Positions 44,950 through 52,136 of a stretch of 64,000 nucleotides of DNA are shown in pieces. The first letter of the stretch is position 1. Each line of letters starts with the position of its first letter. Below the pieces are notes generated by a model. That model was given only the letters and a program-made list of their open reading frames with translations, did no database searches and had not been told where the DNA came from. Source of the DNA: Candidatus Latescibacterota bacterium (GTDB taxonomy: Bacteria > Latescibacterota > UBA2968 > UBA8231); contig OZ220089.1 of NCBI GenBank assembly GCA_964291625.2, positions 2,848,001 to 2,912,000 of the forward strand, read 5' to 3'. The position numbers and the translations under genes are program-made.

Positions 44950-45672
44950 CTACATCAGGTTCAGCCAGTCGTCGAGAAGGAAGCTGACCCGCCCGATGAG
45001 CAGGGACAGGCGGGCCATGACCGTGTACCCGAAGGAGGCTCCGAAGGAGATCATCAGGAACCAGATGCCGAGCTTGGAGGCGGTGCCCACGGCCCCGGTG
45101 TGCTCCACGGAGAAGAAGAAGTAGATGAGCACGGTCAAAACGCCCACGAGGACCAGCAGCAGGTTGAACCCCTCCCAGGTGAGGGTGATGGGCGCCAGGC
45201 TGGGCTCGATCTGCCCCAGGACGAAGGAGGACAGGTACCGGGGGATGGTAAGGCCGGCGCCGACGCCGACGACAAAGGCGAAGGAAAGGCGGCTGAGCCA
45301 GCCGATGCGGCGGGAGAACCGGGTCAGCATGAGCAGGCCCAGGAGGGTGGGGAACAGCATCACCCAGGGGTCGTGTCCGCCGCCGCCGCCGTCCAGATCG
45401 ACGTAGGTCCGGATGATGTCGTCGAGGAAGACGTTGTACCAGGTGATGCCGAAGACGTACGCCGCGGCGACGCCCACGTACACATGCTCGGCGACCTTGA
45501 ACAGGGGATTGTCCTTGTAGAGGAAGCTGTACAGGGCGAGGGTGAACCCGGCGGCGACGATCACGCCCGCCCCCTCCCAGTCAGCCTCCAGCAGTCCGCT
45601 GCCGATGAGCACGGCGTTGGCCGCGGCGAAGAGGGCGACGAAGCCGGCGAAGAGGTAGAGGTCTCGAGTCAT
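44950..45672 (-). CDS. Hypothetical integral membrane protein (about 7 TM), last gene of the GlmL-type operon
   Basis: Hydrophobic; motifs YSFLYKDNPLFKVAEHVYVG, YFFFS, MISFGASFGYTVMARLSLLIGR; SD GAGG. Confidence 0.85.
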   Translation of the reverse strand: MTRDLYLFAGFVALFAAANAVLIGSGLLEADWEGAGVIVAAGFTLALYSFLYKDNPLFKVAEHVYVGVAAAYVFGITWYNVFLDDIIRTYVDLDGGGGGHDPWVMLFPTLLGLLMLTRFSRRIGWLSRLSFAFVVGVGAGLTIPRYLSSFVLGQIEPSLAPITLTWEGFNLLLVLVGVLTVLIYFFFSVEHTGAVGTASKLGIWFLMISFGASFGYTVMARLSLLIGRVSFLLDDWLNLM

Positions 45673-45679
45673 GGCGTCC

Positions 45680-46510
45680 TCAGGCCTGACTGTCCCGCCG
45701 GCGGGAGGCGAAGTAGGCGATGTTGCCCAGGATGATGAACAGGACGATGATCAGGTGGGTCACGGACTGCGGCTGCATGCCGTCGGTGGCTCGGCCGGGT
45801 GCGTCCACCAGCATCTCGTACTCGGCGGCCCCGGCCAGCCCGCCGAGGAGGCCCACGAGCTGCCCCGACTGCAGGAAGGGGTAGAGGTCGGGGGCCATCA
45901 CCGCCGTGCAGCCCCCGCCGAAGGGGAACCGGTGCTTCTCCTGGCCGTACGGGATCCACCAGTACTCCATGGAATCGCCTGCGGCGAAGTCGAAGACGAA
46001 GGAGAAGTCCTTCAGGTTTTCCACCCCCGCCAGCACCGGCAGGTCGCCCACCGGGGTCCCCTCGGTGTCGAAGGGAAAGGTGTCGGCCACGCTCTGCCCC
46101 ATGTTCAGCACCACCGCCTGATAGCCGATCTTGTAGCCCAGGAAAGCGTAGTCGACCCCGTACCGGCGGCCGAACTCGGCGGCCAGCTCGTCCATCACCG
46201 GCTGGGCGAGCCCCACCGCCTCGGGCCACAGGCAGATGGCGACCACCTTCAGCCCCCGTTGGAAGAGGTGGCGCACGACGGCGCGGGTCATCGGTACCAT
46301 CTCCGGCTCGGTGCTGGCGCCGTAGGAGAACGAGACCAGCACCGGCCGGCCGGCGTCCTCGGCGGCCACTCTCTCGATCTCGTCGTACACCGAGCGCACC
46401 GTGGGAGACGGCTTGATCGGAAGGGGGAGGTCCACCAGCAGGGGGATGGCCACCCCCAGAAAGACGAAAACGAAGATGAAGCGGCGGTCCAGGTTGATCA
46501 GCCGGTCCAT
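45680..46510 (-). CDS. Hypothetical membrane protein (TM - alpha/beta domain - TM), resembling the DUF6754 core
   Basis: N-terminal TM; YGVDYAFLGY, GCTAVMAP..YPFLQSGQLVGLLGGLAGAAEYE; C-terminal QSVTHLIIVLFIILGNIAY. Confidence 0.85.
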   Translation of the reverse strand: MDRLINLDRRFIFVFVFLGVAIPLLVDLPLPIKPSPTVRSVYDEIERVAAEDAGRPVLVSFSYGASTEPEMVPMTRAVVRHLFQRGLKVVAICLWPEAVGLAQPVMDELAAEFGRRYGVDYAFLGYKIGYQAVVLNMGQSVADTFPFDTEGTPVGDLPVLAGVENLKDFSFVFDFAAGDSMEYWWIPYGQEKHRFPFGGGCTAVMAPDLYPFLQSGQLVGLLGGLAGAAEYEMLVDAPGRATDGMQPQSVTHLIIVLFIILGNIAYFASRRRDSQA

Positions 46511-51387: not shown

Positions 51388-51712
51388 GGCGCCGGTCTTC
51401 CCCTTCGGTGATCGCCTCGATGATCCAGTCGATGCTGCGGCGCCTTTCCAGCAGTCCCCGAAGGCGGTCGTACTCGGCAGGCGAGAAGGCGAGCTTCAGC
51501 ATGGGGCCGGCGAAGGCCAGCACCTGGCTGCCCATGAAGCTCAGGGGCCGGGTGCTCTCGAGCGCCATCAGGGCCGGCGCCGTCAGGCGGCGGCGCACGA
51601 CGAGGCGGGCCAGGCGCTCTATGAGGGCCCGCTCCTCCTCGGAGAGGGGTTCCCCGGAGTCGAGGGCGAAGGCGTGGGACCAGCCGCGCCGCAGGCGCTC
51701 AAGCGGGGACAC
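51380..51712 (-). CDS. Small hypothetical helical protein
   Basis: LARLVVRRRLTAPALMALESTRPLSFMGSQ; overlaps both neighbours (translational coupling). Confidence 0.75.
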   Translation of the reverse strand: MSPLERLRRGWSHAFALDSGEPLSEEERALIERLARLVVRRRLTAPALMALESTRPLSFMGSQVLAFAGPMLKLAFSPAEYDRLRGLLERRRSIDWIIEAITEGEDRRRG

Positions 51713-52136
51713 GGGCCCGTGCCAGGGCGACGACTTCGCCGGCGTCGACGCCGGGGCCGAAGCGCAGGAACACTCCGCGGAAGGAATCGAGCCGGCTCGG
51801 CCGCCGGAAGGGGCTCAGGAAGAGACCGTCGGCGTGGCGGTCGACGCGGCGGAAGGTGGACCAGGGCCGGCGGCGCCAGGTCAGCTGGCGCCAGGCGGCC
51901 TCATGTTCGTCGAGAATGTACCGAGTCGGGAGCAGGTAGCGGGCGGTGGCTCCCGCCAGCGCCAGGAGCGAGATCAGTCCGTAAACGGCGCCGCCGAGGC
52001 TGGCGGCGGCCAGGGTGGAGAACCCGACGATCAGGGCCCCCAGGGCAGCCGACTTCCAAGCCGGCTCCTGGCGAAGCGGGTGGGCCGTCCATGCGAGGGG
52101 GCCGTGCCGGCTGGCGGTCGGGTCGCTCGCAACCAT
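51699..52136 (-). CDS. Hypothetical membrane protein (2 TM plus PH-like tail)
   Basis: WTAHP, two TM helices, PTRY..., LSPF..PSRLDSFRG; overlaps the downstream gene. Confidence 0.7.
   Translation of the reverse strand: MVASDPTASRHGPLAWTAHPLRQEPAWKSAALGALIVGFSTLAAASLGGAVYGLISLLALAGATARYLLPTRYILDEHEAAWRQLTWRRRPWSTFRRVDRHADGLFLSPFRRPSRLDSFRGVFLRFGPGVDAGEVVALARARVPA

Follow-up and report, generated by a model that had tools for sequence, protein, structure and literature searches.

An eight-gene cluster joining a GlmL-branch ASKHA ATPase to membrane proteins: a candidate ATP-driven envelope machine in Latescibacterota and other phyla

The window analysed here, i.e., a stretch of 64,000 nucleotides (nt) from a Candidatus Latescibacterota bacterium (GenBank assembly GCA_964291625.2, contig OZ220089.1, positions 2,848,001 to 2,912,000), carries at window positions 44950-52136 eight closely packed minus-strand genes (G1 to G8) that join an actin-fold ATPase to a set of membrane proteins. 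The first, G1 (51699-52136; 145 amino acids (aa)), encodes a two-helix membrane hairpin (residues ~30-61) followed by a C-terminal domain of ~85 aa, and G2 (51380-51712; 110 aa) a helical protein without a curated family. G3 (49516-51387; 623 aa) encodes the ATPase, of the ASKHA (actin-fold) type and the MutL/GlmL Pfam family, and G4 (48389-49516; 375 aa) its cytoplasmic partner or adaptor, composed of a barrel-sandwich hybrid, a swivelling beta/beta/alpha and a KOW/SH3-like domain. These are followed by G5 (47184-48392; 402 aa), with a signal peptide, an FN3 domain, a transmembrane (TM) helix, a DUF6754 domain and a C-terminal TM helix; G6 (46514-47173; 219 aa), a polytopic membrane protein of ~5-6 TM segments; G7 (45680-46510; 276 aa), with a TM helix, an alpha/beta domain of ~215 aa and a second TM helix; and G8 (44950-45672; 240 aa), another polytopic membrane protein of ~5-7 TM segments.

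Since the window has a G+C content of ~70%, spurious long open reading frames (ORFs) are abundant in it, and third-position GC (GC3) was used to tell real frames from spurious ones. All eight ORFs described in an earlier sequence-only reading were indeed present, with GC3 values of 0.86-0.96 (0.86 for G1, 0.90 for G2, and 0.94 for G6), versus 0.44 for a competing, overlapping 461-aa ORF at 45669-47054. With the start codons chosen, the junctions from G1 to G8 consist of overlaps of 14, 8, 1, and 4 nt followed by gaps of 10, 3, and 7 nt, so that the proposed spacing (overlaps or gaps of at most 10 nt) holds at six of the seven junctions and is exceeded by the 14-nt overlap. Profile scans with Pfam and NCBIfam identified PF13941 in G3 and PF20539 in G5, and together with the structural model of G4 and the hydropathy-based TM segments (two in G1, G5, and G7, and ~5-6 in G6 and G8; none in G2 and G4) they agreed with the gene content of that reading, including its count of five membrane proteins. 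Five of the eight proteins matched no family above cut-off, and a sixth is a domain of unknown function (DUF).

The same genes recur in the same order in distant phyla, an arrangement far beyond chance. Among the best 80 loci of at least 588 genomes with a G5 relative, scanned at one genome per species (the 80 being labelled Gemmatimonadota, Latescibacterota, Planctomycetota (Brocadiales, Scalindua), and Bdellovibrionales), tblastn located the members collinearly and on the same strand in 58 (G1), 68 (G2), 70 (G3), 72 (G4), 80 (G5), 79 (G6), 79 (G7), and 75 (G8) loci, with many of the misses falling at contig ends. Where present, G1 was always the first of the set, and overlapping or near-abutting junctions were retained across these loci. 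A further set of 27 metagenome loci of at least 7 kb, obtained from a scan seeded with a distant fused relative, kept the G3-G4-G5-G6 order in 20 cases at 30-63% identity to the window proteins, with 16 loci reaching G8. Both sets bear out the expectation that the cluster genes co-occur in other genomes.

Moreover, the ATPase and the DUF6754 protein share a phyletic pattern. Whole-genome searches of 125 genomes from the window's phylum, each at least 90% complete, revealed PF20539 in 112 and PF13941 in 111 of them: both families were present in 111 genomes and neither in 13, while DUF6754 occurred alone in one fragmented assembly and MutL alone in none. The distribution was patchy among 61 Planctomycetota genomes, of which 14 carried both families, 44 neither, two DUF6754 only, and one MutL only (as a weak partial match). 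G3 and G5 have been gained and lost together, patchy distribution included, and despite the kinship of the genomes the same pattern is seen in both phyla as well as in split clusters.

Broken clusters were informative as to which genes belong closest together. In all five genomes in which the membrane genes lacked a neighbouring ATPase, a G3-type gene was found elsewhere, followed by G4 in four of the five loci (the fifth being too short to tell). Four Brocadiales/Brocadia-type split clusters kept G2, G3, and G4 together, apart from G5-G8, and one locus (L062) kept G1-G2 with G5-G8, apart from G3-G4. In seven Latescibacterota-labelled loci three Opp genes were situated between G3 and G4, with G4 remaining at the front of G5-G8, and five metagenome loci contained G4-G5 with no other members detected nearby (the one inspected, L132, has the pair behind an FtsH-like gene). 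In such clusters G4 adjoins either G3 or G5, and G2 adjoins either G3 or the membrane genes.

G3 and G4 are also found fused. Of 64 longer G4 relatives, 62 additionally carry PF13941 (~960-1050 aa, i.e., a fusion of ~1000 aa), under record labels that include Neomarinimicrobiota, Planctomycetota, Cloacimonadota, Aegiribacteria, Fermentibacteria, and Eisenbacteria. In one of these, P0276 (223 member sequences), a linker of 21 residues connects a full G3 to a full G4. Since they form a single polypeptide in many lineages, G3 and G4 are one functional unit. G4 and G5 share one reading frame in a lone, C-terminally truncated record. The eight genes are one co-inherited module, comprising an ASKHA ATPase, a three-domain adaptor, and five membrane proteins.

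The ATPase matched the MutL family PF13941 strongly (E-value of 2.3e-127; 425.9 bits at a cut-off of 27; residues 7-503), and scored below all GlmL-type NCBIfam cut-offs, i.e., 226.4 of 475 bits for the GlmL equivalog, 202 of 600 for the Or-4 equivalog, and 171.7 of 204.05 for the glmL_fam subfamily (the accessory-protein models involved being TIGR01319, NF040745, and NF040744 next to PF13941). Its phosphate-1 (D11, G13, T15-K18), phosphate-2 (D284, G286, G287, T289-D291), and adenosine (G443-G446) motifs were invariant in 15 of 15 sequences, and with these nucleotide-binding motifs intact G3 looks competent as an ATPase. A conserved C-terminal extension of ~120 aa with a motif of its own reaches beyond the Pfam model, and no PDB sequence matched G3 at E-values up to 1. 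Behind the phosphate-2 motif, residues ~297-322 (window ~50420-50500) form an insertion of ~25 residues rich in Ala, Gly, Glu, and Pro, which was absent from 11 of 14 aligned relatives and shorter in the other three.

On the face of its PF13941 match, and of the name "glutamate mutase L" that public records give to its relatives, G3 could be an ordinary GlmL-type mutase accessory protein that lies beside unrelated membrane genes by coincidence. This explanation is scarcely credible and already contradicted. Besides the sub-threshold NCBIfam scores, it conflicts with the collinearity across phyla and with the matching phyletic pattern that extends to split clusters. Furthermore, neither the eight proteins nor the ten flanking genes covered by the Pfam scans showed any B12-binding or mutase family, and the glutamate-mutase E subunit (PF06368) had no match in the window's own genome (5.9 Mb, 95% complete), in which PF13941 is single-copy and the three matches to the B12-binding family PF02310 are all far from the window. 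A search for PF09043 (lysine-aminomutase) returned no matches anywhere, not even for its control, and carries no weight here.

A canonical GlmL does occur in this phylum as a second, separate gene. In nine genomes, all from a single genus, there is a further MutL copy with a higher score, and in the one examined this canonical protein of 470 aa is encoded directly after a B12-binding domain gene, which served as a positive control. G3 is 31% identical to it, with a clear alignment over ~500 residues, and the canonical protein lacks the C-terminal extension. The sequence-only reading was right to note the absence of a mutase or B12-binding gene around the ATPase and to keep the two apart: G3 never stood beside a B12-binding gene in the loci examined, its canonical paralogue does, and G3 is unconnected to B12 mutases. 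Neither scattered genes in other genomes nor regular B12-mutase partners, which that reading had named as grounds for abandoning it, were found where examined. At its locus in the related genome (L085; G039:C1:3447000-3462000), the canonical MutL is situated between a B12-binding gene and a 619-aa ORF without Pfam match, with a DegT-type aminotransferase and a pyridoxal-phosphate decarboxylase nearby; this is possibly an aminomutase-type pathway only partly recognised by Pfam.

The partner protein G4, whose family counts 1033 clusters at 50% identity (E-values up to 1e-30), gave only sub-threshold Pfam matches (Biotin_lipoyl, at 20.0 bits versus a cut-off of 22.1, RnfC_N, and HlyD_3) and chance-level matches to PDB sequences. 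An AlphaFold2 (AF2) model built from 15 sequences (predicted local distance difference test (pLDDT) of 83.4) resolved three domains. The first (residues ~49-123) is a barrel-sandwich hybrid resembling the N-terminus of RnfC/NqrA (VIA: 8ahx_C and 4u9o_A, Z 7.7, over 64 aa at a root-mean-square deviation (rmsd) of 2.1-2.6), and the second (residues ~152-296) a swivelling beta/beta/alpha domain as in the His-domain of enzyme I of the phosphotransferase system (PTS) (2wqd_A, Z 9.1, rmsd 2.7, 105 aa), rifampin phosphotransferase (5hv1_A, Z 9.0, rmsd 2.8, 108 aa), and RraA (Z 8.7). Residues ~311-375 are a KOW/SH3-like barrel, matching NusG (1m1g_A, Z 8.4) as well as NdhS, PsaE, and PetP. These Z values are middling and speak for a shared fold rather than a shared function; the whole-chain Foldseek TM scores were low because the protein has three domains. 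Domains of these kinds recur in peripheral subunits of membrane complexes (RnfC, NqrA, NdhS, PsaE) and as mobile swivelling domains. No His in the swivelling domain was invariant or at least 90% conserved among 69 sequences, the sole conserved His being H3, so that a phosphohistidine relay by G4 is unlikely.

Three further observations concern G4. Its first nine residues (M-A-H-A-Y-T-P-G-L; window 49490-49516) are at least 90% conserved in the 69 sequences, and this N-terminal motif is retained behind the linker in G3-G4 fusions. K97 (window ~49226-49228), in the barrel-sandwich (lipoyl/biotinyl-like) domain, is invariant in 15 and at least 90% conserved in 69 sequences. Finally, a LplA/LipB-type ligase gene was located upstream of G1 in 14 loci, directly before G1 in L034.

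The pairing with G4 bears on another explanation of the cluster. It is well established that actin-fold proteins can be tethered to membrane partners of the bitopic or polytopic kind, and G3, with its ASKHA fold family and intact nucleotide motifs, might polymerise like MreB, FtsA, ParM, or MamK, with the membrane proteins anchoring or positioning the filament. Such a membrane-tethered cytoskeleton is nevertheless very improbable, as the nearest relatives of G3 belong to the hydantoinase/GlmL branch, which is not known to polymerise, and its obligate pairing or fusion with a barrel-sandwich/swivel/KOW protein has no counterpart among bacterial actins.

Among the membrane proteins, G5 is the only one with a named domain. 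Its residues 146-397 matched PF20539 (DUF6754) with an E-value of 5e-111 (370.4 bits at a cut-off of 27), residues 24-146 adopt an FN3 fold (VIA Z 9.8-8.2; 6tpu_B, Z 9.8, rmsd 2.4, 84 aa; most of the rows listed were FN3 or FN3-like), and hydropathy placed TM segments at 156-174 and 376-394. By the positive-inside rule, the DUF6754 domain would be cytoplasmic and the FN3 domain periplasmic, as would the alpha/beta domain of G7. In the AF2 model of G5 the FN3 part reached a pLDDT of ~85-93. Residues 276-370 of DUF6754 stayed below 50, so that a fold search of this domain is not meaningful. Its profile gave chance-level matches only against PDB, no usable feature match was obtained for G5 or its relative P0107 in the ESM Atlas, and hhalign detected no relation of G5 to G7 or to a protein with a B12-binding domain. 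Two DUF6754 genes lie adjacent or ~3.5 kb apart in some Planctomycetota genomes (G142, G170, G181) and in P0190/P0208, so that the membrane subunit can occur as a tandem duplicate.

Over 68 loci, G5 showed 47-93% identity, with long invariant stretches in its DUF6754 part, where an alternating strand/helix pattern is accompanied by dozens of invariant polar residues (H208, E254, D267, Q281, E309, D329, C341, D342, and others). This extreme conservation across phyla would also suit a membrane-anchored enzyme, in which DUF6754 were a catalytic or cofactor domain, G3-G4 an ATP-dependent activating, repair or cofactor-exchange chaperone, and G6-G8 the proteins that supply or clear away a substrate located in the membrane or periplasm; transport would not be ATP-driven. 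Characterised members of the G3 family are enzyme accessory proteins. A chaperone role of this kind has been proposed for GlmL, acting on mutases, and demonstrated for diol dehydratase reactivase. The alpha subunit of that reactivase unites an ASKHA ATPase with a swivelling domain in a single chain, as the G3-G4 fusions do. However, sequence comparison linked DUF6754 to neither an enzyme family nor a solved structure and showed no likeness to a B12-binding domain, and an enzyme-chaperone pair explains neither the variable periplasmic domains of G5 (fn3, beta-propellers) nor the three further membrane proteins. Nor were conserved substrate-pathway genes present beside the cluster outside one phylum. 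On balance an enzyme with its activase seems rather unlikely, though it is the foremost rival reading.

The extracytoplasmic part of G5 varies by lineage. Longer relatives (689 proteins of 705-2010 aa) keep DUF6754 and have an enlarged N-terminal part with fn3 (PF00041) or PQQ-type beta-propeller domains. A constant cytoplasmic domain below one FN3, several fn3, or PQQ-type propeller domains is a pattern common among receptors, and in one locus (L054) a gene for a Crp-family regulator lies ahead of G1. The cluster could accordingly be read as a transmembrane sensor, in which a cue from the envelope or from outside would be perceived by the G7 domain together with the variable periplasmic part of G5, and the cytoplasmic ATPase unit would act as output or reset switch. 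We consider this improbable: Pfam and NCBIfam revealed no kinase, cyclase, HAMP, PAS, receiver, or DNA-binding domain in any of these proteins, eight co-inherited genes, three of them for polytopic or double-anchored membrane proteins, exceed what known sensors need, and a single-copy system that is near-universal in a phylum is unlike typical sensor families.

The remaining proteins belong to families without a curated model. G1 and G2 had no Pfam or NCBIfam match at E-values up to 0.1. G6 yielded sub-threshold noise (TMD0_ABC at 18.9 bits versus a cut-off of 27, ABC2_membrane_3 at 15.3 versus 31.6), and the window proteins G7 and G8 matched no Pfam family even at E-values up to 10, with scattered noise for 16 members of each family. 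G8 has two conserved Glu-His pairs, and hhalign detected no relation between G6 and G8. The Pfam scans found no ABC_tran match in G1-G8, and the TM proteins matched no ABC permease family above noise. The possibility that G6 and G8 are divergent Opp permeases run by the adjacent OppD/OppF was rejected, as they had no BPD_transp_1 match and canonical permeases are present in addition in loci of the L039 type.

Our best reading, which we consider an evenly balanced proposition, is that this one co-inherited system is an ATP-driven, envelope-spanning machine, be it a transporter or a mechanotransmitter. In such a machine G4, and possibly G2, would be adaptors between the ATPase and the membrane proteins, with G4 (perhaps together with G2) docking the ATPase onto the cytoplasmic DUF6754 domain of G5. 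G5 would assemble with G6, G7, G8, and G1, exposing its FN3 domain and the alpha/beta domain of G7 on the periplasmic face. By analogy with chaperone-like ASKHA "reactivases" that pry open their clients, ATP binding and hydrolysis by G3 would force a conformational change in DUF6754, and the membrane subunits would relay this change, so that either a substrate is moved across the inner membrane or work is done in the periplasm. A predicted complex of G4 with G5 residues 176-378 (own alignments of 69 and 67 rows) had an ipSAE of 0.00 in both runs, which counts neither for nor against binding.

Going one step further, it is possible rather than probable that a new energising class is involved, in which a GlmL-branch ASKHA ATPase powers a membrane complex through a swivelling/KOW adaptor, as primary transporter or as force transmitter to the FN3 and alpha/beta domains. 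We would suggest with similar caution that this class forms a third kind of energising module, besides P-loop ATPases (ABC, AAA+) and rotary ones, with a wide distribution over Gemmatimonadota, Latescibacterota, Marinimicrobia, anammox Planctomycetota, and related uncultured phyla. The "new class of primary transporter" of the sequence-only reading is accordingly handled here as a hypothesis, and a membrane-anchored enzyme with an ASKHA activase of its own would fit the observations nearly as well.

Several observations weigh against the envelope-spanning machine. The link between ATPase and membrane proteins rests on gene context, fusions, and phyletic pattern, from which protein contact and energy transduction are inferred. 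The most conserved half of DUF6754 (residues 276-370) is the part modelled at a pLDDT below 50, and neither a fold nor a docking surface can be read from it. The many invariant polar residues of DUF6754 fit a site of catalysis or ligand binding no less well than a domain that serves for passive docking. Since the Pfam and NCBIfam scans recognised no transporter, channel, or stator family in G6, G7, or G8, there is no evidence of substrate passage through these proteins. The majority of the 80 genome loci are labelled Latescibacterota, and related genomes are non-independent observations. Furthermore, parts of the cluster can lie 25-110 kb apart or on separate contigs, so that co-translation is not required. 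As for its surroundings, Brocadiales contexts are heterogeneous, and the association with Opp-type genes detailed below is lineage-limited, with only one weak case (L095, OppD/OppF-like) in the 27 metagenome loci.

The nearest known systems each resemble part of the module. With the accessory proteins GlmL/MutL, Or-4 (OraF), and KamC, G3 shares the Pfam family, the ASKHA motifs, and an alignment of ~500 residues, but it differs in its low identity (31%) to the canonical copy, its sub-cut-off NCBIfam scores, its ~120 extra C-terminal residues, its constant pairing or fusion with G4, and the absence of an adjacent B12-binding gene from all loci examined. The diol and glycerol dehydratase reactivases (DdrAB, GdrAB) likewise combine an ASKHA ATPase and a swivelling domain into an ATP-driven chaperone acting on a partner protein. 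G4, in contrast, adds barrel-sandwich and KOW domains, the cluster has neither a gene for a Rossmann-type beta subunit nor one for a B12 enzyme, and the presumed client would be a membrane protein.

A cytoplasmic ASKHA-fold protein coupled to inner-membrane proteins with periplasmic domains is also found in PilM-PilNO, FtsA, MreB-MreCD-RodZ, and GspL. Homology to the module is limited to the fold class there, as the membrane partners are unrelated and G3 belongs to the hydantoinase/GlmL rather than the actin/Hsp70 branch. The mechanotransmission ABC systems (MacB, LolCDE, FtsEX) provide the working model, i.e., cytoplasmic ATP hydrolysis transmitted through few TM helices to large periplasmic domains, but the eight proteins include no ABC ATPase. 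Finally, the likeness of G4 domains to RnfC/NqrA and to PTS enzyme I or PEP-utilising enzymes is at the level of fold: the module lacks Fe-S and flavin domains, and G4 the conserved His of the swivelling domain.

Search listings, titles, and abstracts contained no literature on DUF6754, PF13941, or GlmL-like ATPases in this context, and as far as searched the module has not been described before, nor has any system of this composition. If the module is one machine, it would be the first in which an ASKHA ATPase of the hydantoinase/GlmL branch energises a membrane complex, and it would provide a function for DUF6754 and for several large families without a curated model. With proteins 50-80% identical across phyla, a core physiological role is implied for this single-copy system, whose carriers include sponge and marine symbionts, anammox bacteria, and Marinimicrobia, i.e., ecologically important and poorly cultured organisms. 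In addition, the public name "glutamate mutase L" on G3 and on G3-G4 fusions can cause metabolic reconstructions to assume, wrongly, that glutamate is fermented by a B12-dependent route. One locus (L038) is labelled as a metagenome-assembled genome of Gemmatimonas phototrophica, a cultured species, which opens the question to experiment.

Downstream of G8 and convergent with it, an Opp/Dpp-type peptide ABC importer is encoded on the plus strand (39013-44926), with two permease genes, an SBP_bac_5 gene, and OppD- and OppF-type ATPases (Pfam). Its membership of the system is uncertain, and OppD/OppF form a separate, convergent operon here. Opp-type parts, in four different arrangements, were located inside or directly beside the cluster in 45 of the 80 genome loci. 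In 22 loci an SBP_bac_5-like gene is the immediate upstream neighbour of G1, in seven such a gene is situated between G3 and G4 (the two neighbouring permease genes being Pfam-confirmed in L039 only), and OppD/OppF lie within 1.5 kb past G8 in 23 loci. Further recurrent neighbours in the window's phylum are a PD40/Peptidase_MA-like protein of ~1200 aa, a TonB-dependent receptor, and the LplA/LipB-type ligase. The interleaving of the cluster with Opp, peptidase-like, and TonB-receptor genes weakly suggests peptide or amino-acid acquisition, as a lead that applies to one phylum rather than to the cluster at large.

A 640-aa protein that matched no Pfam family was situated near the cluster in 23 of the 80 loci, and a class IV aminotransferase, with 73-81% identity between loci, in 24, with sites at 35093-37977 (plus strand) in the window and in the upstream regions of L012-L033. 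The first Opp-type permease of the window is present in two overlapping frames (39013-39624 and 39546-40067), each of which matches part of BPD_transp_1, and L039 has one gene of 433 aa. The split permease at 39013-40067 may reflect a frameshift, pseudogene formation, or an error of assembly.

Upstream of the cluster, a minus-strand lysA, i.e., a gene like that of diaminopimelate decarboxylase (52175-53455; TIGR01048 at 262 bits, below the cut-off of 298), ends 38 nt before G1 and is preceded by a sigma-70-like site at 53538-53510. In this genome lysA may be co-transcribed with the cluster. As a member of the system it was dropped, since it adjoins the cluster in only seven of the 80 genome loci.

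Contigs from one sponge metatranscriptome run (X1) differed from the window at three of 1179 bases and covered all 30 bins of 44600-53700, bridging the G8/G7, G7/G6, G6/G5, and G1/lysA junctions. Because DNA may be present in such libraries, these contigs are weak evidence, consistent with expression, and contigs cannot prove a single transcript. Three other RNA runs (X2, X3, X5) contained only divergent relatives (90-95% identity) or small parts.

Beyond the cluster, three tRNA genes (Ser-CGA, Ser-GGA, and Ala-CGC) lie at 54066-54344 on the plus strand, in the gap upstream of the lysA promoter region. A complete rRNA operon occupies 19731-24892 on the same strand (16S, 19731-21292; tRNA-Ile, 21384-21460; 23S, 21643-24648; 5S, 24776-24892), and accounts for the low-GC stretch (0.55-0.58) in the composition profile of the window.

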